The translations under genes and the position numbers were made by a program. Below the pieces are notes generated by a model. It did no database searches, had not been told where the DNA came from, and saw only the letters and a list, made by a program, of their open reading frames with translations. This document shows, one piece after another, positions 28,526-57,565 of a stretch of 64,000 nt of DNA. The DNA lies in the NCBI RefSeq assembly GCF_988242995.1, contig NZ_OZ547043.1. One strand, written 5' to 3'. Numbering within the stretch: position 1 is the stretch's first letter; the number at the start of each line of letters is the position of its first letter.

Positions 28526-28760
28526 CTAGGATAAGCGAAACGTGGAATAAAAGGAATGATTGTCCAGTCAAAGAAGACAATTATCTGACTTACGTCACGT
28601 TTTCAGCCCCGCCCCTGTGGAATTTATTCCACTTTGCAGAATCACGAATAAGCGTAGCAAAATCTTTTCGTTGTGCCGTCACAAACCCTGACTTATATCA
28701 GAATATGACTGATGCAGCGTCGATATTATCCGCAATACGTCCGAGTTTCGGAGTACTCCA

Positions 28761-29192
28761 ATGATGACATTGCCCTACCCATATTCTTCCTCCGCACGTT
28801 TTTACGCGCTGCGCCTGCTCCCCGGGCAGGAAGTTCTCTCCCAATTACGCGCCTTCGCGCAGCAACAACAACTTCACGCCGCGTGGATTGCAGGTTGTAC
28901 CGGCAGTCTGACTGACGTCGCCTTACGCTATGCCGGGCAAGAAAACACTGCCCTGCTAAGCGGTAAGTTCGAAGTCATCGCATTGAACGGCACGCTGGAA
29001 CAGAGTGGTGAACATCTTCATCTCTGCGTTTCCGATCCACACGGCACGATGCTTGGCGGTCATATGATGCCCGGCTGTACCGTGCGGACCACGCTTGAAC
29101 TGGTGATCGGCTGCCTTGAGGAACTGGCGTTTAGCCGCCAGCCTTGCGCGCTTTCTGGTTACGACGAGTTGCATATTTCCCCCGTTAACTAA
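28761..29192 (+). CDS. PPC/DUF296 domain protein, 143 aa, first gene of the ECF operon
   Basis: GGAG 8-11 nt upstream of the ATG; ...HLHLCVSDPHGTMLGGHMMPGCTVRTTLELVI resembles the PPC (PF03479-type) fold. Confidence 0.65.
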   Translation: MMTLPYPYSSSARFYALRLLPGQEVLSQLRAFAQQQQLHAAWIAGCTGSLTDVALRYAGQENTALLSGKFEVIALNGTLEQSGEHLHLCVSDPHGTMLGGHMMPGCTVRTTLELVIGCLEELAFSRQPCALSGYDELHISPVN

Positions 29193-29214
29193 CTATTTTC
29201 AGAGAGGTTTTCTT

Positions 29215-29793
29215 ATGGCGCGTCGCCACTTTTCCAGTCAGGCGCTGGTGTTAATCGTTATATCTATCGCCATCAATATGATCGGCGGGCAACTGGCCAG
29301 CATGGTCAAATTACCTATATTTCTCGACTCCGTCGGCACACTTATTAGCGCGGTACTGCTTGGTCCGGTGATCGGGATGCTGACCGGCTTACTGACCAAT
29401 TTACTCTGGGGATTGCTGACCGACCCGATCGCCGCCGCATTTGCGCCCGTCGCGATGGTCATCGGCCTGGTCACCGGTTGGCTGGCGCGAGCGGGTTGGT
29501 TCCGCACCCTGCCAAAAGTCGTTGTTAGCGGCGTGATTATTACGCTTGCGGTAACGGTCGTCGCTGTACCGCTGCGTACTGCGCTGTTCGGCGGCGTGAC
29601 AGGAAGCGGAGCCGATTTGTTCGTTGCCTGGATGCACTCGATGGGGCAAAACCTGGTGGAGTCGGTGGCGATTACGGTGATAGGCGCGAACCTGGTCGAT
29701 AAAATTCTCACAGCGGTGATTGTCTGGCTTTTACTGCGTCAGCTGCCGATTCGCACCACGCGCCATTTCCCGGCAATGGCTGCCGTGCGCTAA
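29215..29793 (+). CDS. ECF transporter substrate-capture (S) component, 192 aa, substrate unknown
   Basis: AGAGAGG Shine-Dalgarno before the ATG; small polytopic protein with LPIFLDSVGTLISAVLLGPVIGMLTGLL, the loop motif typical of S components. Confidence 0.65.
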   Translation: MARRHFSSQALVLIVISIAINMIGGQLASMVKLPIFLDSVGTLISAVLLGPVIGMLTGLLTNLLWGLLTDPIAAAFAPVAMVIGLVTGWLARAGWFRTLPKVVVSGVIITLAVTVVAVPLRTALFGGVTGSGADLFVAWMHSMGQNLVESVAITVIGANLVDKILTAVIVWLLLRQLPIRTTRHFPAMAAVR

Positions 29794-30501
29794 ATGCATC
29801 CGTTTACATCCTTAACGCTGTGGGCGCTGGCGGCCTGCACCACGCTTATCCTGCCCACACAGACAATATTGCCAGTCTATAGCGCGGCGACCTTTTTCTG
29901 CCTTATTGCGCTAAAGGCCACGCGGCGGCGGGCAAAATATGTCGTCTGGCTGATGTTCTCGCTGGGGGCTGGACTGTGGTTGGTACACGGTGGCTGGCTG
30001 ACAGAATGGCTAAGCGGCACGCCACGCTCGCCAGAACGGTGGACGCATGCTATTACGCTCTGGTTGCGGATTCTGGCGATTGTTTCAACCTCGCAGTTGT
30101 GGATGCAGTACGTCCCAGTGCAACGTTTTATCCGCGCTTTGTTTGCTTCTCACCTGCCGCCGGGCGTCGCTTATCTGTTCGCCGGGCCGTTGTTGGTCGT
30201 TGAGCAGTTAAAACGGCAATTAGCGATTATTCATGAAGCGCAGCGCGCCCGCGGCGTGCCGCTGGATGAGGGCTGGTATCAGCGTTTACGTGCTATGCCC
30301 GCGCTAATTATTCCGCTAACACACAATGCGCTAAACGATCTGGCTATCCGTGGTGCGGCGCTGGATATGCGGGCATTTCGAATCAACAATAGGCGCACTA
30401 CGTTATGGGCACCAGCCGATAGCACCCTACAACGCGTAGCACGTTACACCATGATCTTGCTGATGCTGGCAGAATTCGGAGCGTGGATATGGTTACGTTA
30501 G
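29794..30501 (+). CDS. ECF transporter transmembrane (T) component, EcfT/CbiQ family, 235 aa
   Basis: ATG directly abuts the S-component stop (TAAATG); polytopic; ARG and IRG coupling-helix motifs. Confidence 0.65.
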   Translation: MHPFTSLTLWALAACTTLILPTQTILPVYSAATFFCLIALKATRRRAKYVVWLMFSLGAGLWLVHGGWLTEWLSGTPRSPERWTHAITLWLRILAIVSTSQLWMQYVPVQRFIRALFASHLPPGVAYLFAGPLLVVEQLKRQLAIIHEAQRARGVPLDEGWYQRLRAMPALIIPLTHNALNDLAIRGAALDMRAFRINNRRTTLWAPADSTLQRVARYTMILLMLAEFGAWIWLR

Positions 30502-31166
30502 AACAGTTCCGCTATTGCCCGACACACTCAACGCATCCTCCGTTCTGTTATGACTTTCACTATGTCAAACCGGGGATGGTCGCCATCTTTGGTGACAACG
30601 GCAGTGGCAAAAGTACGCTGGCGCAGCTGATGGCGGGCTGGTATCCGGACTTTCTACCAGGAGAGATAACCGGCACGGGGACGCTTCTCGGTACGCCCAT
30701 TGGGCGTCTCCCGCTTAATGAACAATCCGCCACCATCCAGCTCGTCCAGCAATCGCCCTATTTGCAGCTCTCCGGCTGTACCTTTAGCGTGGAAGAAGAA
30801 GTTGCCTTTGGGCCAGAAAATCTGTGTCTTGCTGAAAAAGAGATTATGGCGCGGATTGACGCCGCCCTGGCCCTGACCGAGTGCCAGCCGTTGCGCCATC
30901 GTCACCCGGCAACACTCTCCGGTGGAGAGACACAGCGCGTGGTCATCGCCTGCGCCATCGCGATGCAGCCAAAACTCTTAATTCTTGATGAAGCCTTTAG
31001 CCGCCTGACGCCGCAGGCCAGCGAAATGCTGTTGCAGCGCTTACAACACTGGGCGTCTGAACGTGGTTCGCTGATTATTCTTTTTGAACGTCATCGCACA
31101 CCTTTCCTGAACTACTGCCAGCAAGCGTGGCTATTGCAAAACGGAGCGCTCCAGCCACTATGTTAA
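30489..31166 (+). CDS. ECF transporter ATPase component A, ABC-type, about 225 aa
   Basis: Walker A GDNGSGKST, signature LSGGE, Walker B LLILDEA; start overlaps the T gene (a GTG at 30483 is an alternative start). Confidence 0.75.
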   Translation: MVTLEQFRYCPTHSTHPPFCYDFHYVKPGMVAIFGDNGSGKSTLAQLMAGWYPDFLPGEITGTGTLLGTPIGRLPLNEQSATIQLVQQSPYLQLSGCTFSVEEEVAFGPENLCLAEKEIMARIDAALALTECQPLRHRHPATLSGGETQRVVIACAIAMQPKLLILDEAFSRLTPQASEMLLQRLQHWASERGSLIILFERHRTPFLNYCQQAWLLQNGALQPLC

Positions 31167-31837
31167 CGTTAAATCAGATAACTTATCGCTGGCCTGGCGC
31201 GGCAACGGATTGTCTTTGCGACATTTCTCTGCAACTCAAACAAGGTGAATGGTTGGCGCTGACCGGCGACAATGGCGCGGGAAAATCGACGCTGTTACGA
31301 GTAATGGCAGGTCTTCTTACGCCCACAACCGGTACGGTTATGCTGCAACAACAGGCGATGAAAAACCTGAAAAACCGCCAACGTGCAGCAAAGATTGGCG
31401 TACTGTTTCAGGAAGCGGAAAACCAGCTTTTTCACAGCACCGTCGCCGACGAGATCGCATTTGGTTTGAAACTGCAAAAATGCCCGGCGGATGAAATCAC
31501 TCAACGTACCAATGCTGCCCTGCAATGCTGTCAGTTAGCAGACACTGCCAGCGCGCATCCGCTGGATCTGCATAGTGCGCAGCGACGGATGGTCGCCGTC
31601 GCCTGCCTGGAAGCACTCTCTCCGCCGCTATTGCTGCTGGACGAGCCGAGTCGGGATTTTGACGAAAATTGGTTGAGCGTGTTTGAACGCTGGCTGGAAA
31701 AGTGCCGCCAGCGAGGCACGAGCGTCGTAGCAATCAGTCATGACGCCGCATTTACCCGGCGTCATTTCTCTCGTGTGGTGCGACTGGAAGATGGTGTAAT
31801 CAGGAACGTTAATCCACCAGACGATATTCACCCGTAG
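31160..31837 (+). CDS. ECF transporter ATPase component A', ABC-type, 225 aa
   Basis: Walker A GDNGAGKST, Walker B LLLLDEP, H-loop SHD, signature degenerate (LHSAQ); ATG overlaps the component A stop (ATGTTAA). Confidence 0.75.
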   Translation: MLTLNQITYRWPGAATDCLCDISLQLKQGEWLALTGDNGAGKSTLLRVMAGLLTPTTGTVMLQQQAMKNLKNRQRAAKIGVLFQEAENQLFHSTVADEIAFGLKLQKCPADEITQRTNAALQCCQLADTASAHPLDLHSAQRRMVAVACLEALSPPLLLLDEPSRDFDENWLSVFERWLEKCRQRGTSVVAISHDAAFTRRHFSRVVRLEDGVIRNVNPPDDIHP

Positions 31838-32522
31838 CGGTCATCATTAAGGTCAAATTTGCAGGCAGACTCTCTTCCAGCACCCGGCGAACATTCGGCC
31901 CGTCGGTACGGTCATAAAAGTCTTCTGCGTCTGCCAGCGATAACCCTCCCGCCAGCTTTCGCCCCACCAGTCGTTCCCGCAACGCAGTAGCTGGCGCGTT
32001 GATAAAGATAGAGAAATCACAAAATTGCGCAAGCTGGCACCACTTCTCGTCGTCCAGCAACAACCAGTTTCCTTCGACGATGACGAGTGGTGCGGTAACG
32101 TGCAGCGCATCTTCAACAGGATCATGCTTTTGTCGATCGTACTGCGGCCACGTACAATCCCCTTCCACGACCTGGCGCAGATTTTCCGCCAGTTTCGCAA
32201 CGTCAAATGTCTCTGGTGCGCCTTTGAAGGGGCGCAATTGATGCGCATCCAGCCAGCTATTGTAATGGTGAAAACCATCCATCGGTAGCGTCTGAATAGC
32301 GGGCAGTTCCGGGTCTTGTTGCGCGATATATTCCCAGAAGGTGGTTAGGGTAGATTTACCCGTCCCCGGCGGAGCGCAAAGAAAAACCACCGTACGCCGC
32401 TGCGGATTTACCGTCTGTAAGGCCGCCAACATGTGCAGCAACGGTTTATGTACATTTTCAATCTCTTCGTTCTGGTACTGTGCCTGTATCTTCAGCCCAT
32501 TCACCGTTAATTCAATTTTCAC
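31809..32522 (-). CDS. yggC: P-loop nucleoside/pantothenate-kinase-like protein YggC, 237 aa
   Basis: Walker A APPGTGKST; matches YggC. Confidence 0.85.
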   Translation of the reverse strand: MKIELTVNGLKIQAQYQNEEIENVHKPLLHMLAALQTVNPQRRTVVFLCAPPGTGKSTLTTFWEYIAQQDPELPAIQTLPMDGFHHYNSWLDAHQLRPFKGAPETFDVAKLAENLRQVVEGDCTWPQYDRQKHDPVEDALHVTAPLVIVEGNWLLLDDEKWCQLAQFCDFSIFINAPATALRERLVGRKLAGGLSLADAEDFYDRTDGPNVRRVLEESLPANLTLMMTATGEYRLVD

Positions 32523-37163: not shown

Positions 37164-37540
37164 AAATTATCCTTATTTTATTTTTAGGGTACCGTCCGGC
37201 GGTAAAAATAAAATACTCGTGCGGTTTAATGAAAGCAATTGGGTACGCGAGAAGAAAAACCCCATGAGCCAAAATAATAAAACTTTAAATAACAACAACA
37301 TGAAATCAATAATTACAAAGTCAACTTTGTATTTGTTATGTTTATCACAAAATCAACATTTTGTTTGTTATTGTATTTTTGATGCATATCGCCATTTATT
37401 TATTGAATGTCCGAAAACATACTTTTTTTAATGCAATGTTTTTTCGCTATACCCCTTTATAGATTCTGAATTCTCACCTGTCGGCTATTTTCTCCTCACC
37501 TCATGTGACATATTCCCCACTTTACTCAAGGAAGATTCAT

Positions 37541-38449
37541 ATGAAAGCACCTGTTTCAATAACCTCATTTCGCCCACAAAAATCTATTGCTATCGTCATT
37601 GGCGTGCTTGCCGTGGTTGTGCTGCCATTTCTCTCGTATTACACCGTTAATGAAGGTGAACGCGGCATTTTGCTGCGCTACGGAAAAATCGTAAAAGTTG
37701 CCGAGCCGGGTCTGGGTTTTAAAATCCCTTTTATGGAAAGCGTGGAGAAAATTTCCACGCGTAATCAGGCTGTGGTTTATCAGGGATTACAGGCCTACAG
37801 CCGCGACCAGCAACCGGCACAAATGACAGTATCAGTCAGCTTCCACATTAAACCTTCAGAAGCTGGCGCAGTTTATACAACCTACAACACCATTGAATCT
37901 TTAAAAGAGCGTCTGATCGTCCGCCAGCTGCCAACCCAACTGGAGAACGTTTTCGGGCAATATACAGCCATCAGCGCGGTACAGGATCGTACAAAACTGG
38001 TTCAGGATCTGCAAAATGCAATGCGTAAAGCCGTTGTTGGCCCGGTGGTGATTGATGGTGTTCAGATTGAAAATATTGATTTTTCTGACGCTTATGAAAA
38101 ATCGATTGAAGATCGAATGAAAGCAGAAGTCGCCATTGCCACACGTAAGCAAAATCTGGAAACAGAGAAAATCCAGGCGCAAATAGCGGTAACTCAGGCC
38201 CAGGCAGAAGCAGACAGTAAACTGGCGGCAGCCAAAGCAGAAGCTGAGACTATTCGCGTAAGAGGCGCGGCAGAGGCTGAAACTATTCGTTTAAAAAGTG
38301 CGGCTGAAGCAGAAGCGATCCGCCTGCGCGGTGAAGCTCTGCGGGATAATCCCGGACTTGTTGCCCTCACCACTGCTGAGCGTTGGGACGGTAAGCTACC
38401 CGATACCATGATCCCCGGCAGTACAGTTCCGTTTATCTCTACTAAGTAA
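37541..38449 (+). CDS. SPFH/band-7 (prohibitin/HflC-like) membrane protein with an Ala/Glu-rich repeat tail, 302 aa
   Basis: AAGGAAG Shine-Dalgarno before the ATG; N-terminal TM helix; SPFH core (YTVNEGERGILLRYGK...); C-terminal AEAETIR-type repeats. Confidence 0.7.
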   Translation: MKAPVSITSFRPQKSIAIVIGVLAVVVLPFLSYYTVNEGERGILLRYGKIVKVAEPGLGFKIPFMESVEKISTRNQAVVYQGLQAYSRDQQPAQMTVSVSFHIKPSEAGAVYTTYNTIESLKERLIVRQLPTQLENVFGQYTAISAVQDRTKLVQDLQNAMRKAVVGPVVIDGVQIENIDFSDAYEKSIEDRMKAEVAIATRKQNLETEKIQAQIAVTQAQAEADSKLAAAKAEAETIRVRGAAEAETIRLKSAAEAEAIRLRGEALRDNPGLVALTTAERWDGKLPDTMIPGSTVPFISTK

Positions 38450-39155
38450 TAAATATCCTCCGGCATAGCCGGAGGTTTTTCAAATGCGCCTATAAGGCTC
38501 TCTTACCAGCCGCGCCCTAACAGGCGCACACGATCTGACATTTGCATCCAACTTCGTTACTTACGGCCCGTAAACGGGCTGCCCGGATAGGGAATCGATA
38601 ACTGCTCTCCCATTTTATCCTCTTCAAGCTGGTGCTTTATGTAATCCTGTATCTTCGCCGTGTTCTTACCCACTGTATCGACGTAGTACCCTCTGCACCA
38701 GAACTCCCTGTTCCTGTATTTGAATTTCAAATCACCAAACTGCTCGTAAAGCATCAGACTGCTTTTCCCTTTCAGATATCCCATAAACCCGGATACGCTC
38801 ATTTTGGGCGGGATCTCCACAAGCATATGGATATGATCTGCACAGCATTCAGCTTCCAGAATCCGTACGCTTTTCCACTCACACAGCTTTCTCAAAATAC
38901 TGCCTATTGCTCTACGCTTCTCTCTGTAGAACACCTGTCTTCGGTATTTTGGCGCAAAAACTATGTGATATTTACAGTTCCATCGGGTGTGCGCTAAGCT
39001 CTTTTCGTTCCCCATTGGGACCCCCTTTTGATTTCTTGTTTGACACTTGCAGTTGCCAGACCGCAAGGTGTTTTAACAAATCAAAAGGGGTTTTAATAAC
39101 TGGCTCAAAGCTGAAAGCTTTCCGGAACCCCCAGCCTAGCTGGGGGTTTTCTGTG
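38450..39155 (-). mobile_element. IS200 insertion sequence (IS200/IS605 family), about 0.7 kb, boundaries approximate
   Basis: Complete Y1/HUH transposase gene; GC-rich subterminal hairpins at both ends (cccccagcctagctggggg 39128-39146 and cctccggcatagccggagg 38456-38474). Confidence 0.6.
38557..39015 (-). CDS. tnpA: IS200 transposase TnpA (Y1 HUH transposase), 152 aa
   Basis: MGNEKSLAHTRWNCKYHIVFAPKYRRQVFY...HIHMLVEIPP... matches IS200 TnpA. Confidence 0.9.
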   Translation of the reverse strand: MGNEKSLAHTRWNCKYHIVFAPKYRRQVFYREKRRAIGSILRKLCEWKSVRILEAECCADHIHMLVEIPPKMSVSGFMGYLKGKSSLMLYEQFGDLKFKYRNREFWCRGYYVDTVGKNTAKIQDYIKHQLEEDKMGEQLSIPYPGSPFTGRK

Positions 39156-39158
39156 CAC

Positions 39159-39183
39159 AAAAAAAGGGCCGCTTTCGCGGCCC
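39159..39183 (-). terminator. Intrinsic terminator downstream of tktA
   Basis: gggccgcgaaagcggccc hairpin followed by a 7-T run on the minus strand. Confidence 0.75.
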
Positions 39184-39205
39184 TTCTCACAAAGCATCTT
39201 ACCGA

Positions 39206-53791: not shown

Positions 53792-54207
53792 TGAGTGGAA
53801 CCTTACTCGCCTTCGACTTCGGCACCAAAAGCATTGGCGTAGCGGTCGGCCAACGCATTACCGGCACTGCTCGCCCTTTGCCTGCAATTAAAGCACAGGA
53901 CGGTACGCCGGACTGGAACCTCATCGAACGTTTACTGAAAGAGTGGCAGCCGGACGAAATCATCGTCGGTTTGCCGCTGAATATGGACGGCACCGAGCAA
54001 CCATTGACTGCCAGAGCGCGTAAATTTGCCAACCGTATTCATGGCCGTTTCGGTGTTGAAGTAAAGCTCCATGACGAGCGTCTTAGCACTGTGGAAGCCC
54101 GTTCCGGTCTGTTTGAACAGGGCGGCTATCGGGCGCTCAACAAAGGCAAAGTTGACTCTGCCTCTGCGGTTATTATTCTCGAAAGCTATTTCGAGCAGGG
54201 ATATTAA
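53791..54207 (+). CDS. yqgF: Holliday-junction-resolvase-like pre-16S rRNA nuclease YqgF/RuvX, 138 aa
   Basis: [25 protein letters not shown]...; ATGA overlap with the yqgE stop. Confidence 0.95.
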
Positions 54208-54254
54208 GGCGATTTAAACGCCTGGCGGAGTGTAAATAATATCATCGCGTCTTA

Positions 54255-54382
54255 TTGCCGGATGCGGCGTGAACACCTTATCCAGCACACATCTGGCAGC
54301 GGCTATAGGTCTGATAAGACGCGTTAGCGTCGCATCAGACATTTATTGCCTTTGTAGGCCCGATAAGCTTGCGCATCGGGCA
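54255..54382. repeat. REP/BIME cluster (three REP units) between yqgF and yggR
   Basis: gccggatgcggcgtgaacaccttatccagc, aggtctgataagacgcgttagcgtcgcatcagac and gtaggcccgataagcttgcgcatcgggc. Confidence 0.8.
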
Positions 54383-54390
54383 TGGCAACG

Positions 54391-55371
54391 TCACAAACGC
54401 CCTTCCCCCACCCGGTGCTGATAACTCTGCTGAAACGTTATCATCCCCACCTGCTGCCCGGTTTGAATAACATGCGGTAACTGGTGGGTTTTCCCTTCGC
54501 GAATCAAATTCCCCACCGCGGGTGTGTTAATCAGCAATTCAAATAGCGCCACGCGTCCTTCCTGTTTATCCACTTCCAGCTTTTGTGACAGCACTGCCCG
54601 TAAACTACCTGCCAGTTGATTACGCACGGGGTCTTTTTCCTGCGCCGGAAATGAATCCACCAGTCGCTCAACTGCCTGCGCGGCACCACGCGTATGTAAT
54701 GTTGCCAGCACCAAATGCCCGGTTTCTGCCGCCGTCAGTGCCAGACGGATTGTCTCGCTGTCACGCAGCTCTCCGAGCAAAATCACATCAGGATCTTCCC
54801 GCAATGCGGCCCGCAATCCCGATGCGAACGTCATACAGTGCAAACCAATTTCCCGCTGCTGGATCAAACATCGCTGGCTGGCATAGAGATATTCAACAGG
54901 ATCTTCCAGCGTCAGAATATGCGCATCGGCATGTTGATTGAGATAGCCAACCATCGCCGCCAGCGTGGTAGATTTGCCACTCCCCGTCGCCCCCGTCACC
55001 AGAATCAGGCCATTCTCGCTCTTGAGTAATTCCGGCAATACCGTTGGTGCGCCAAGCTGTTCGAGCTGCGGGCAGTGCGAAGGTAACAGCCGTAACGCCA
55101 GCGAAATGCCATGCCGTTGCGCGAATGCGCTGCCACGCAATCGCTGGTTTTCCGCCAGCGACACGGCAAAATCCAGCTGACCATTCTCCAGCAATATTGC
55201 CCGCTGATCGTCATCCAGCCACTCCCGCAGTAGCTCTTCGACGTCCGGCGTATCAAACGGCGCAGCTTCCATTCTGCCGCGAATGCGCCATCGTGCGGGC
55301 CAGGCGCTGCACAGGTGTAGATCCGAGACGTTATGCTTTACACTAAGGGCCACAATTTCTTCCATATTCAT
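54391..55371 (-). CDS. yggR: PilT-like type IV pilus retraction ATPase homolog, 326 aa
   Basis: Walker A GATGSGKST; MNMEEIVALSVKHNVSDLHL... matches YggR. Confidence 0.9.
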   Translation of the reverse strand: MNMEEIVALSVKHNVSDLHLCSAWPARWRIRGRMEAAPFDTPDVEELLREWLDDDQRAILLENGQLDFAVSLAENQRLRGSAFAQRHGISLALRLLPSHCPQLEQLGAPTVLPELLKSENGLILVTGATGSGKSTTLAAMVGYLNQHADAHILTLEDPVEYLYASQRCLIQQREIGLHCMTFASGLRAALREDPDVILLGELRDSETIRLALTAAETGHLVLATLHTRGAAQAVERLVDSFPAQEKDPVRNQLAGSLRAVLSQKLEVDKQEGRVALFELLINTPAVGNLIREGKTHQLPHVIQTGQQVGMITFQQSYQHRVGEGRL

Positions 55372-55388
55372 ACTAAGATCCTCGGAAA

Positions 55389-56093
55389 ATGAACGATATT
55401 GCGCATAACCTGGCACAGGTCCGGGACAAAATCTCAGCGGCTGCAACGCGTTGCGGCCGTTCTCCAGAAGAAATTACGCTGCTTGCAGTCAGTAAAACAA
55501 AACCTGCGAGCGCCATCGCAGAAGCCATTGATGCCGGGCAGCGTCAATTTGGTGAAAACTACGTTCAGGAAGGGGTAGATAAAATTCGCCACTTTCAGGA
55601 ACTGGGCGTAACAGGATTAGAATGGCATTTTATTGGCCCGTTGCAGTCTAATAAAAGCCGCCTGGTGGCAGAGCATTTCGACTGGTGTCATACCATCGAC
55701 CGTTTGCGCATCGCTACCCGTCTCAACGACCAGCGCCCGGCAGAACTTCCCCCTCTTAACGTTCTGATTCAAATTAACATTAGTGATGAAAACAGTAAGT
55801 CCGGGATTCAACTGGCTGAACTGGACGAGCTGGCAGCTGCGGTCGCTGAACTACCGCGTTTACGTCTGCGCGGGTTGATGGCAATCCCTGCGCCTGAGTC
55901 AGAATATGTAAGGCAGTTTGAAGTTGCACGCCAAATGGCTGTAGCATTTGCCGGACTGAAAACGCGCTACCCGCATATCGACACGCTCTCTCTGGGAATG
56001 TCGGACGATATGGAAGCCGCCATTGCGGCAGGTAGCACGATGGTTCGTATCGGCACTGCAATTTTTGGTGCGCGTGATTACTCTAAAAAATAA
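55389..56093 (+). CDS. yggS: PLP-homeostasis protein (YggS/PLPBP family), 234 aa
   Basis: MNDIAHNLAQVRDKISAAATRCGRSPEEITLLAVSKTKP... matches YggS. Confidence 0.95.
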   Translation: MNDIAHNLAQVRDKISAAATRCGRSPEEITLLAVSKTKPASAIAEAIDAGQRQFGENYVQEGVDKIRHFQELGVTGLEWHFIGPLQSNKSRLVAEHFDWCHTIDRLRIATRLNDQRPAELPPLNVLIQINISDENSKSGIQLAELDELAAAVAELPRLRLRGLMAIPAPESEYVRQFEVARQMAVAFAGLKTRYPHIDTLSLGMSDDMEAAIAAGSTMVRIGTAIFGARDYSKK

Positions 56094-56110
56094 GGAATTA
56101 AAGGAACGCC

Positions 56111-56677
56111 ATGAATACGTTGACTTTCCTGCTTTCAACGGTCATTGAGCTGTATACCATGGTGCTGTTATTACGCATCTGGATGCAGTGGGCTCATTGT
56201 GATTTTTACAACCCCTTCTCACAGTTTGTAGTGAAGGTAACGCAGCCAATTATCGGGCCACTGCGCCGCGTTATTCCGGCAATGGGGCCAATTGACAGCG
56301 CCTCGCTGCTGGTTGCCTATATTCTCAGTTTTATCAAAGCCATCGTGCTGTTTAAAGTGGTGACCTTCCTGCCAATCATCTGGATTGCCGGTTTACTGAT
56401 TCTGCTGAAAACCATCGGCCTGCTGATTTTCTGGGTCCTGCTGGTGATGGCGATTATGAGCTGGGTAAGCCAGGGGCGTAGCCCGATTGAATACGTGCTG
56501 ATTCAGCTGGCCGATCCGCTGCTGCGCCCGATTCGCCGCCTGCTACCGGCAATGGGTGGGATTGATTTCTCGCCGATGATCCTCGTTCTGCTGCTGTATG
56601 TCATCAATATGGGTGTCGCAGAAGTATTACAGGCAACCGGAAATATGCTGCTGCCAGGGCTGTGGATGGCGTTATGA
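56111..56677 (+). CDS. yggT: YggT-family inner membrane protein, 188 aa
   Basis: [27 protein letters not shown]... matches YggT. Confidence 0.9.
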
Positions 56678-56964
56678 ATGCCGTAACAGTTAATGATGAC
56701 GGTCTGGTTTTACGGCTCTATATTCAGCCGAAAGCCAGCCGTGATTCTATTGTCGGTTTACATGGCGACGAAGTTAAAGTCGCCATTACCGCGCCGCCGG
56801 TTGACGGCCAGGCCAACAGTCATCTGGTGAAGTTTCTCGGTAAGCAATTCCGGGTTGCCAAAAGCCAGGTGGTGATTGAAAAAGGCGAACTTGGCCGCCA
56901 CAAACAAATTAAAATCATTAATCCGCAACAAATCCCGCCAGAAATCGCGGCGTTAATTAATTAG
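56674..56964 (+). CDS. yggU: UPF0235 (DUF167) protein YggU, 96 aa
   Basis: ATGA overlap with the yggT stop; ...[26 protein letters not shown]... Confidence 0.85.
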
Positions 56965-56971
56965 GTATCCT

Positions 56972-57565
56972 ATGCAAAAAGTTGTCCTCGCAACCGGCAA
57001 TGTCGGTAAAGTGCGTGAGCTGGCGTCGCTGCTTAGCGACTTCGGTCTTGATATCGTGGCCCAAACAGACCTCGGCGTTGATTCCGCTGAAGAAACCGGC
57101 CTGACCTTTATCGAAAACGCGATTCTGAAAGCGCGCCATGCGGCAAAAGTGACCGCTTTACCGGCAATTGCCGACGACTCTGGTCTGGCGGTAGATGTGC
57201 TTGGCGGCGCGCCGGGCATTTACTCCGCGCGTTATTCCGGTGAAGACGCGACCGATCAAAAGAATCTGCAAAAACTGCTGGAAACAATGAAAGACGTACC
57301 GGACGACCAACGTCAGGCGCGTTTCCACTGCGTGCTGGTATATCTGCGTCACGCGGAAGATCCCACTCCGCTGGTATGCCACGGTAGCTGGCCGGGCGTG
57401 ATTACTCGTGAACCAGCGGGCACTGGTGGCTTTGGTTATGATCCAATCTTCTTCGTACCTTCCGAAGGGAAAACCGCCGCCGAACTGACCCGCGAAGAAA
57501 AGAGCGCCATTTCCCACCGTGGTCAGGCGTTGAAACTGCTGCTGGACGCTTTACGTAATGGTTAA
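56972..57565 (+). CDS. rdgB: dITP/XTP pyrophosphatase, 197 aa
   Basis: [36 protein letters not shown]... matches RdgB. Confidence 0.95.

Follow-up and report, generated by a model that had tools for sequence, protein, structure and literature searches.

Introduction

In characterised face-to-face arrangements of divergent promoters, promoter occlusion, polymerase collision and the formation of duplex RNA are observed. Another compact form of divergent transcription is the symmetric bidirectional promoter, reportedly described by Warman et al. 2021, in which the two promoters are said to stand back-to-back, giving non-overlapping transcripts from transcription start sites (TSSs) about 18 bp apart on opposite strands. 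Overlapping divergent promoters are commonplace in E. coli, and overlapping 5′ ends were found in 136 of 388 divergent operons of this species (Conway et al. 2014, PMC4161252).

The contiguous and divergent linkage of yggS and pilT has been reported for plant-pathogenic proteobacteria in a study of Acidovorax citrulli (PMC8787154) and in a review (PMC9605639). The type IV pilus genes of E. coli are silent without Sxy and CRP, and two of them, ppdD and yrfD, are Sxy-dependent (PMC1635313). CRP-S sites contain TGCGA half-sites (C6/G17) and lie no more than 300 bp ahead of the start codon; they can overlap an ORF located upstream, and some of them were missed according to the authors (PMC1635313). 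That analysis was confined to orthologues of H. influenzae competence genes, and neither yggR nor pilT is mentioned in it (Cameron and Redfield 2006, PMC1635313).

The subject of this work is the yggR/yggS pair of E. coli. The pair and its spacing are present in every E. coli annotation, and the yggS TSS is contained in a published supplement. The arrangement is an ancient, conserved and documented kind of compact layout and not a new mechanism.

Results

The gene pair and its start codons

The locus was analysed within a 64-kb stretch of E. coli DNA, referred to as the window, which does not come from K-12 itself, being 96–99% identical to the MG1655 genome with several indels, and identical to it in the 160 nt around the junction of the two genes. 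The plus strand at positions 55369–55391 reads CAT-ACTAAGATCCTCGGAAA-ATG, where CAT at 55369 is the reverse complement of the yggR ATG (its A at 55371) and the yggS ATG extends from 55389. The start codons on opposite strands had been described beforehand as only 17 bp apart, and this distance is exact both in the sequence and in the RefSeq annotations. The ends of both coding sequences are identical in the PGAP annotation of a 100%-identical strain and the same as those in MG1655 (yggR, 3094100–3095080, minus strand; yggS, 3095098–3095802, plus strand). The features of the locus are collected in Table 1.

Table 1. Features of the yggR/yggS locus (positions in the window)
Feature	Position	Strand	Basis
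yggR coding sequence, 326 aa, PilT/PilU-family type IVa pilus ATPase	54391-55371	-	ORF, RefSeq annotation, profile
-35-like hexamer of yggS, TGTAGA, overlapping yggR D17-L18-H19 (codons 17-19; L18 = CTA); putative	55316-55321	+	
-10 hexamer of yggS, TACACT, reverse complement of yggR codons 10-11 (AGT GTA, Ser10-Val11); putative	55339-55344	+	
TSS of the yggS-yggT-yggU-rdgB-hemW operon (+/-1 nt)	55351	+	SMRT-Cappable-seq, MG1655 coordinates transferred
5′ leader of yggS, 38 nt, 21 nt of it antisense to yggR codons 1-7	55351-55388	+	TSS and ATG
Spacer between the two start codons, ACTAAGATCCTCGGAAA	55372-55388	.	Sequence, annotation and gaps of relatives
Shine-Dalgarno sequence of yggR, GAGG, 8 nt 5′ of the ATG	55380-55383	-	Complement CCTC within the yggS leader
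yggS coding sequence, 234 aa, YggS/PLPBP-family PLP-homeostasis protein	55389-56093	+	ORF, profiles
Candidate CRP-S core palindrome, TGCGAGCGCCATCGCA (TGCGA-N6-TCGCA), yggS codons 39-44	55505-55520	.	Perfect motif match
Highest-scoring sigma-70-like match of the yggR strand (TTTATT-17-TAAAAT), 249 nt 5′ of yggR	55627-55655	-	PWM, top 0.02% of the window
Second, internal TSS within yggS, of a yggT-yggU-rdgB-hemW transcript	55953	+	SMRT-Cappable-seq TSS 3095662 forward, b2952-b2955 (PMC6131387)

YggR is classed as a full-length PilT/PilU-family ATPase with a predicted role in pilus retraction. It matched TIGR01420 with 470.1 bits (cutoff 319.1), with residues 2–325 aligned to positions 1–328 of the 343 in the profile, and PF00437 (T2SSE) with 170.7 bits. 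Its GATGSGKSTT (Walker A P-loop), LEDPxE, REDPDVIL, GELRD and TGHLV motifs are invariant in the PilT alignment. YggS matched TIGR00044 with 347.5 bits (cutoff 106.25), residues 1–229 corresponding to profile positions 1–229, and PF01168 with 84.9 bits. Lysine K36 in its LLAVSKTKP stretch was kept in 19 of 19 aligned species; the K36 of the AVSKTKP motif is the PLP-binding lysine of the YggS/PLPBP family (COG0325).

A true start of yggR at Met3 or later, or of yggS further downstream, would enlarge the gap and could leave the promoters intergenic. For yggS, an in-frame TAA at 55374–55376 precludes a start further upstream, no ATG, GTG or TTG occurs between M1 and K36, and the profile match covers residues 1–229 from the first position on; a point in favour of a shifted yggS start is its weak Shine-Dalgarno sequence, for which the anti-Shine-Dalgarno duplex energy in the leader was −3.5 kcal/mol, as against −5.9 kcal/mol for yggR. 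The position equivalent to yggS M1 is largely also a start codon in the survey of PilT loci of other species described below. The yggR reading frame stays open for 25 codons further upstream, up to a TTG, and within the gene an in-frame ATG is found at codon 3 (55365) in E. coli, Citrobacter and some others. This Met3 is, however, not conserved, as the codon is GTG in E. cloacae and the methionine is absent in Enterobacter Ag1, Rahnella and Vibrio, and it would be 14 nt away from the Shine-Dalgarno sequence, the complement of which is kept, within TCCTC, in most enterics. M1 of YggR, in turn, aligned residue for residue with M1 of P. aeruginosa PilT, position 1 of TIGR01420 corresponds to YggR residue 2, and the M1-equivalent codon is a start codon in nearly all of the 71 related loci; over the 80 PilT loci surveyed it is mostly ATG and in three of them GTG. 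A start at Met3 would widen the gap to no more than 23 bp and leave the mapped yggS TSS inside yggR. Relocated start codons are therefore considered highly improbable: the possibility of a true start further downstream, raised in the preliminary description, was checked by means of ORFs, profiles and homologous starts, and both starts stand. YggR orthologues listed from Citrobacter, Salmonella and related genera have 326 aa, and truncated shorter variants are present in E. coli and Shigella.

Conservation of the divergent arrangement

The size of the gap was compared with those of 26 ordinary divergent pairs of coding sequences from 200 kb of the MG1655 annotation. The gap between yggR and yggS was the smallest, the median being about 160 bp. 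The lower half of the values comprised 17, 24, 38, 55, 87, 108, 111, 118, 135, 141, 151, 152 and 160 bp and the upper half 165, 167, 173, 204, 205, 222, 242, 250, 273, 277, 290, 354 and 540 bp. In this small sample of 26 pairs, 17 bp belongs to the lower tail of the distribution and should not be read as unique. A segment of 161 bp centred on the junction was conserved with at least 99% identity in 5354 of 5426 E. coli records, and the surrounding 1.9 kb reached this level in only 1283 of 5435.

A scan based on the PilT alignment, with one genome per species, gave 80 loci from Gamma-, Beta- and Zetaproteobacteria and a few other groups. In 71 of them a YggS homologue was encoded directly upstream of pilT on the opposite strand. 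The start-to-start gaps in these 71 loci had a median of 56 bp and ranged from 11 to 289 bp, with a single outlier at 1252 bp. The gap was 16–22 bp in 10 other Enterobacterales species, five of which had exactly 17 bp, and the same 17 bp was found in the further enterics Salmonella, Intestinirhabdus, C. rodentium and C. koseri. Elsewhere the gaps were 23–26 bp (Vibrionaceae), 35 bp (Shewanella), 39 bp (Aeromonas) and 33–194 bp (most Betaproteobacteria). Judged from this survey, the pilT/yggS pairing is of ancient origin, and extreme compression characterises the Enterobacterales/Vibrionaceae branch.

The yggS promoter within yggR

In the SMRT-Cappable-seq analysis of MG1655 (PMC6131387, Supplementary Data 1 and 2), a TSS supported by 242 reads was assigned to position 3095060 on the forward strand (NC_000913.3) for a transcript comprising b2951–b2955. 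The 3′ end of this transcript was at 3098536, and the operon was the same as in RegulonDB (PMC6131387). Coordinate mapping and the local sequence identity allow the TSS to be transferred to the window, where it is located 38 nt 5′ of the yggS ATG and 20 nt within yggR, at the third base of codon 7. The leader defined in this way showed no strong predicted structure.

Because the TSS lies 20 nt inside yggR, the −10 and −35 elements of yggS consist entirely of yggR codons. The TACACT hexamer occupies positions −12 to −7 relative to the mapped TSS and is separated by 17 bp from TGTAGA. The pair scored in the top 0.9% of the window with a home-made PWM built from hexamer frequencies, which makes the promoter calls heuristic. 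TGTAGA matches the consensus in only three of six positions, and a simple sigma-70 consensus scan of the 54900–55900 region gave no matches, the TGTAGA/TACACT pair included. TGTAGA was unchanged at the homologous position in six Enterobacteriaceae species and four further enterics, and the position reads TGCAGA in Rahnella, Acerihabitans and Photorhabdus. Position and conservation together suggest that TGTAGA-17 bp-TACACT is a weak sigma-70 promoter of the yggS operon.

The presence of TACACT at pilT codons 10–11 followed the size of the gap. Of the 19 loci with gaps of up to 26 bp, 17 had the hexamer; it was found in 3 of 17 with a gap of 33–56 bp and in none of the 35 with a gap of at least 67 bp, and these counts are not independent, as the short-gap lineages form one gammaproteobacterial clade that is less GC-rich than the Betaproteobacteria. 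Salmonella, Intestinirhabdus, C. rodentium and C. koseri, which were compared in addition, have it as well. Among the related marine gammaproteobacteria, Shewanella, with its 35-bp gap, retains TACACT; Colwellia and Cognaticolwellia, with gaps of 70–175 bp, have CACACT or TACGCT instead. Such a pattern would be expected if a short gap forced the yggS promoter into pilT and froze the codons involved.

Synonymous variation among six Enterobacteriaceae was low at the 5′ ends of both genes, amounting to 0.125 in yggR codons 1–22 against 0.53 in the rest of the gene and to 0.20 against 0.50 for yggS codons 1–45. Control genes likewise had their lowest values in the first 22 codons (gshB, 0.18; yqgE, 0.22; yggT, 0.28), and low variation at the 5′ end was discarded as unspecific evidence of an embedded promoter.

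The mapped TSS also bears on the idea that one shared back-to-back bidirectional promoter, with overlapping −10 elements, co-regulates both genes. The divergent orientation, the extreme proximity of the genes and the AT-rich hexamers on both strands near 55360–55375 would suit such a promoter. The yggS TSS (55351) is, however, situated to the left of the yggR ATG (55371), and if a second TSS were placed back-to-back with it, at a distance of about 18 bp to the left, this partner would be within yggR and downstream of the yggR start codon. A transcript from there could not encode full-length YggR, as the next methionine is residue 34. The geometry of the mapped TSS relative to the yggR ATG practically excludes a shared bidirectional promoter.

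Expression of yggR and the location of its promoter

The preliminary description proposed mapping of start sites on both strands, and the published SMRT-Cappable-seq data give the TSS at 55351 on the yggS strand and list none for yggR. The tables for M9 and rich medium contain no transcript covering b2950 (yggR) and no reverse-strand entry with coordinates within 3094000–3095499. Of the two genes, only yggS is expressed in these data, yggR being silent. The data files of Ettwiller 2016 considered here have no coordinates near the yggR/yggS locus, in Kim 2012 the two genes appear in an ortholog table only, and a literature search found nothing relevant on yggR together with yggS, ppdD, Sxy or promoters.

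The dN/dS of yggR relative to other enterics was 0.03–0.13, indicating purifying selection as strong as that on yggS. This selection and the retained Shine-Dalgarno sequence argue that yggR is used somewhere. As the 17-bp spacer is too small to hold both a −35 and a −10 element, at least part of any yggR promoter has to be within yggS. Geometry thus points to a yggR promoter with at least its −35 region, and probably the whole of it, inside yggS. The earlier claim that each gene must be driven from within the coding sequence of its neighbour is borne out for yggS by a TSS 20 nt inside yggR, and in the case of yggR geometry is the only argument for it.

No convincing conserved sigma-70 promoter for yggR was revealed by the consensus scan, the PWM or cross-species comparison. 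The best sigma-70-like match on this strand, TTTATT-17-TAAAAT, was rejected as a conserved yggR promoter, as its hexamers vary at synonymous sites in other species; it is probably a by-product of the conserved WHFIG..SNK codons. The Vibrionaceae alignment likewise gave no clear −35/−10 pair for pilT within yggS, and coding constraint confounds conservation there. A terminator-like hairpin on the minus strand (55522–55493) could not be told from chance, its energy of −8.9 kcal/mol corresponding to z = −0.25 and three such sites being found with 1.1 expected. The Rfam scan of 54000–57000 yielded nothing at the junction.

Separately, sub-threshold REP-like naRNA4 matches were recorded in the Rfam scan at 54247–54412.

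Alternatively, yggR might have no dedicated nearby promoter and be expressed solely as the tail of long antisense RNAs starting deep inside or beyond yggS, possibly at the TTTATT-17-TAAAAT match (55655–55627) or further downstream. In the part of the RNase III/p19 data considered here, captured double-stranded RNAs are located inside the body of yggS, at about 55631–56047, which indicates antisense transcription over this gene, and the best sigma-70-like match of the yggR strand is 249 nt upstream of yggR. In the same part of the data, however, read counts were low and the strongest double-stranded RNA was upstream of the predicted start of this candidate, from which it cannot derive. The lack of conservation of the hexamers at synonymous sites and the absence of a full-length reverse transcript over b2950 from the SMRT-Cappable-seq tables also weigh against such an origin, which is considered doubtful. 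It would likewise put the promoter in the neighbouring coding sequence and does not contradict the preliminary description in this respect.

A candidate CRP-S site within yggS

A second possibility is that yggR is driven by an Sxy-dependent CRP-S promoter embedded in yggS. CRP and Sxy acting on the core in yggS codons 39–44 would activate a weak promoter further downstream in yggS, and yggR would be co-induced with the cryptic type IV pilus/DNA-uptake genes of E. coli (ppdD-hofBC, hofM-Q). The centre of TGCGAGCGCCATCGCA is 141.5 bp upstream of the yggR ATG, i.e., within the 300 bp asked for by the definition of CRP-S sites. It is the only perfect TGCGA-N6-TCGCA in the window, where 0.22 are expected, and the chance expectation for the 300 bp upstream of yggR is about 0.001. 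A similar CRP-S-like site with two mismatches, at 55400–55415, was rejected, as 32 sites of this quality occur in the window with 49 expected and it is too near the ATG.

The core has no mismatches in E. coli, E. albertii, E. cloacae, Superficieibacter, Enterobacter Ag1, Salmonella and Intestinirhabdus and one mismatch at the homologous position in five further enteric species, so that it is kept with 0–1 mismatches in 12 enteric species despite a varying N6 spacer; it is lost in Photorhabdus, Vibrio, Aeromonas and Shewanella. It falls inside the one stretch of yggS, codons 23–45, that stands out by its synonymous conservation, with a variation of 0.18 against 0.38–0.58 in six control genes. 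On the other hand, the core is made of Pro-Ala-Ser-Ala-Ile-Ala codons adjoining the universally conserved PLP-lysine motif, so that coding constraint confounds its conservation, and in C. koseri a synonymous change disrupts it. The palindrome can also be read as the weak antisense hairpin of unremarkable energy (−8.9 kcal/mol, z = −0.25) mentioned above.

The surroundings of the core were less suggestive. Its flanks are not A/T-rich on both sides, and no convincing −10 element was found at class I distances (−62, −73, −83 and −93). The best fit, an extended −10-like element TGAGATTTT, was chosen post hoc and puts the core near −91. A weaker CRP-S-like site is present at a similar distance upstream of ppdD (−136 from the ATG), and the silence of yggR in standard media resembles that reported for ppdD, but none of the papers searched links yggR or pilT to Sxy. 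An Sxy-dependent promoter of yggR is accordingly a tentative and rather unlikely explanation. If it holds, the missing retraction ATPase would join the Sxy regulon of E. coli, and the locus would exemplify a pair of promoters, each lying in the reading frame of the other gene. Quite improbable, as a further step, is that the 17-bp junction forms a reciprocal switch conserved in Enterobacteriaceae, in which the Sxy/CRP-S promoter made entirely of yggS codons would fire head-on into the constitutive yggS promoter made of yggR codons; induction of the competence and type IV pilus regulon would then turn yggR on and transiently damp yggS-yggT-rdgB-hemW.

Discussion

The data are best explained if yggS and a pilT-type gene are an old head-to-head pair, whose gap of about 17 bp in Enterobacterales would make the divergent promoters overlap and favour interference rather than co-expression; the probability of this reading is put at roughly three in four. 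The yggS promoter, a weak sigma-70 promoter written in yggR codons 17–19 and 10–11, would be active constitutively. Transcription of yggR would take place in conditions beyond those sampled, starting in the spacer or inside yggS, and the yggR promoter would, by geometry, overlap yggS codons. Between the yggR mRNA and the 5′ end of the yggS mRNA there would then be a complementary stretch, of 20 nt for a leaderless yggR transcript and of at least 21 nt otherwise; with a yggR leader long enough for the Shine-Dalgarno sequence, it would cover both ribosome-binding sites. Divergent promoters placed face to face in this manner may lead to transcriptional interference and potentially to RNase III-sensitive duplexes. 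The constitutive yggS promoter would tend to limit yggR expression until the yggR promoter is switched on by a dedicated activator.

The preliminary description suggested that the compact arrangement may link the expression of the PilT-like ATPase to that of the PLP-homeostasis gene. The conserved adjacency of yggS and pilT is compatible with a functional or regulatory link. With two promoters predicted to point towards each other and transcripts that would overlap over both translation-initiation regions, however, the expected coupling is antagonistic, and interference rather than co-expression is predicted. The duplexes seen in the considered part of the p19 double-stranded RNA data were within the yggS body, with none at the predicted 5′ overlap. 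Vibrio species have a functional PilT despite gaps of 23–26 bp, which means that compactness alone does not silence pilT.

The analysis adds to existing knowledge a proposed placement of the yggS −10 and −35 elements in yggR codons, the wide extent of the synteny (71/80), the compression in particular lineages, the correlation between short gaps and frozen codons and the CRP-S lead. When divergent genes are squeezed together, promoter hexamers would become fixed codons of the neighbour, as suggested for PilT Ser10-Val11 (AGT GTA). As the putative yggS −10 element, these codons stay frozen across Enterobacterales, Vibrionaceae, Aeromonas and Shewanella. If yggR were cleanly deleted, or its first 20 codons recoded synonymously, the promoter of yggS-yggT-yggU-rdgB-hemW would be expected to be lost, which makes the placement useful to annotators and to anyone recoding or deleting yggR.

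Compared with symmetric bidirectional promoters, the yggR/yggS locus shares divergent transcription from a very small DNA segment but differs in that the yggS TSS is beyond the start codon of yggR, so that the transcripts must overlap. With the CRP-S promoters of ppdD, yrfD/hofM and sbmC (PMC1635313), the yggR candidate has in common a core no more than 300 bp upstream of a cryptic pilus gene; sites of that set may overlap an upstream ORF, as the candidate does, and are conserved among Enterobacteriaceae, where the candidate is kept with 0–1 mismatches in 12 enteric species but within conserved coding sequence. Unlike them, the candidate is located wholly in coding sequence.

Overlapping divergent or excludon-type loci, such as ilvY-ilvC and argECBH (PMC4161252), are divergent units with overlapping 5′ ends, and for yggR/yggS an overlap of this kind is predicted by geometry. 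A common trait is that the transcribed or coding region of one unit contains promoter elements of its partner, here with the yggS TSS inside yggR. The locus differs from them in having one mapped start site only, that of yggS, and a spacer of 17 bp as against the sample median of about 160 bp. The yggS-pilT linkage of plant-pathogenic proteobacteria involves the same two gene families, contiguous and divergent, and the E. coli pair is its enteric version. The previous reports cover the linkage and the phenotypes of yggS mutants and not the promoter architecture (PMC8787154, PMC9605639). In the present survey the linkage is seen more widely in Gamma- and Betaproteobacteria, at 71 of 80 PilT loci, and in Enterobacterales and Vibrionaceae it is compressed to 16–26 bp.

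Candidate regulatory signals and an internal start site within yggS

A perfect CRP-S core (TGCGA-N6-TCGCA, TGCGAGCGCCATCGCA), the type of Sxy-dependent CRP site known from E. coli type IV pilus genes, was detected within the yggS coding sequence and occurred only once across the 64-kb window. It was located 141 bp from yggR, on the upstream side, and carried 0–1 mismatches across 12 enteric species. This core may be a Sxy-dependent site serving yggR, a cryptic pilT homologue.

The yggS gene also contained a sigma-70-like match in antisense orientation, which scored in the top 0.02% of the window. This match arises from the WHFIG..SNK codons, and its synonymous sites were not kept in other species. 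Several 21–22-nt duplex RNAs from a p19/RNase III dsRNA data set (PMC7373196) mapped within the yggS body (about 55631–56047) and, therefore, an antisense transcript crosses yggS. On the sense strand, a second, internal start site revealed by SMRT-Cappable-seq yielded a yggT-yggU-rdgB-hemW transcript, so part of the operon can be expressed without yggS.

Features in and around yggR and yggS and in MG1655 (NC_000913.3)
Feature	Position	Strand	Remarks
CRP-S core	55505-55520		yggS codons 39-44
TTTATT-17-TAAAAT	55627-55655	-	within yggS
Internal TSS	55953 (NC_000913.3 3095662)	+	within yggS
naRNA4 (REP-derived elements)	54247-54412		Rfam
H24 (match on NZ_CP194962.1, 243-kb record)	55300-55386		5' part of yggR
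coaE/yacM	NC_000913.3 113219-113244		divergent start-to-start gap, 24 bp
yqfB/bglA	NC_000913.3 3043623-3043662		divergent start-to-start gap, 38 bp

Genomic neighborhood and comparison with MG1655

Where ruvX (yqgF) converges on the yggR 3' end, the gap contained sub-threshold naRNA4 matches. Only REP-like sequence was present in this E. coli interval, whereas additional ORF(s) without a Pfam match separated yggR from ruvX in Salmonella (locus L087, 2613–3299) and Intestinirhabdus (locus L088, 2478–2789). A few plasmid records (3 of 5538 places) also carried the 5' part of yggR, as far as the 17-bp spacer preceding yggS, and yggR-associated ISEcp1-blaCMY-2 units have been described (PMC6061673, PMC7174606).

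Two segments of the window were missing in MG1655. The 3.3-kb segment (about 28600–31880), with a 145-bp epd-yggC interval as its MG1655 counterpart, codes for an ECF-type transporter module in which an S-component-like protein is accompanied by two ECF/CbiO-like ATPases. The 2-kb segment between cmtB and tktA (about 37240–39205) carries genes for a transposase of the IS200/IS605 family and for an SPFH protein resembling HflC/HflK.

Among the MG1655 annotation sampled, coaE/yacM and yqfB/bglA were the remaining very short divergent gaps, and these pairs may have embedded promoters of a similar kind.
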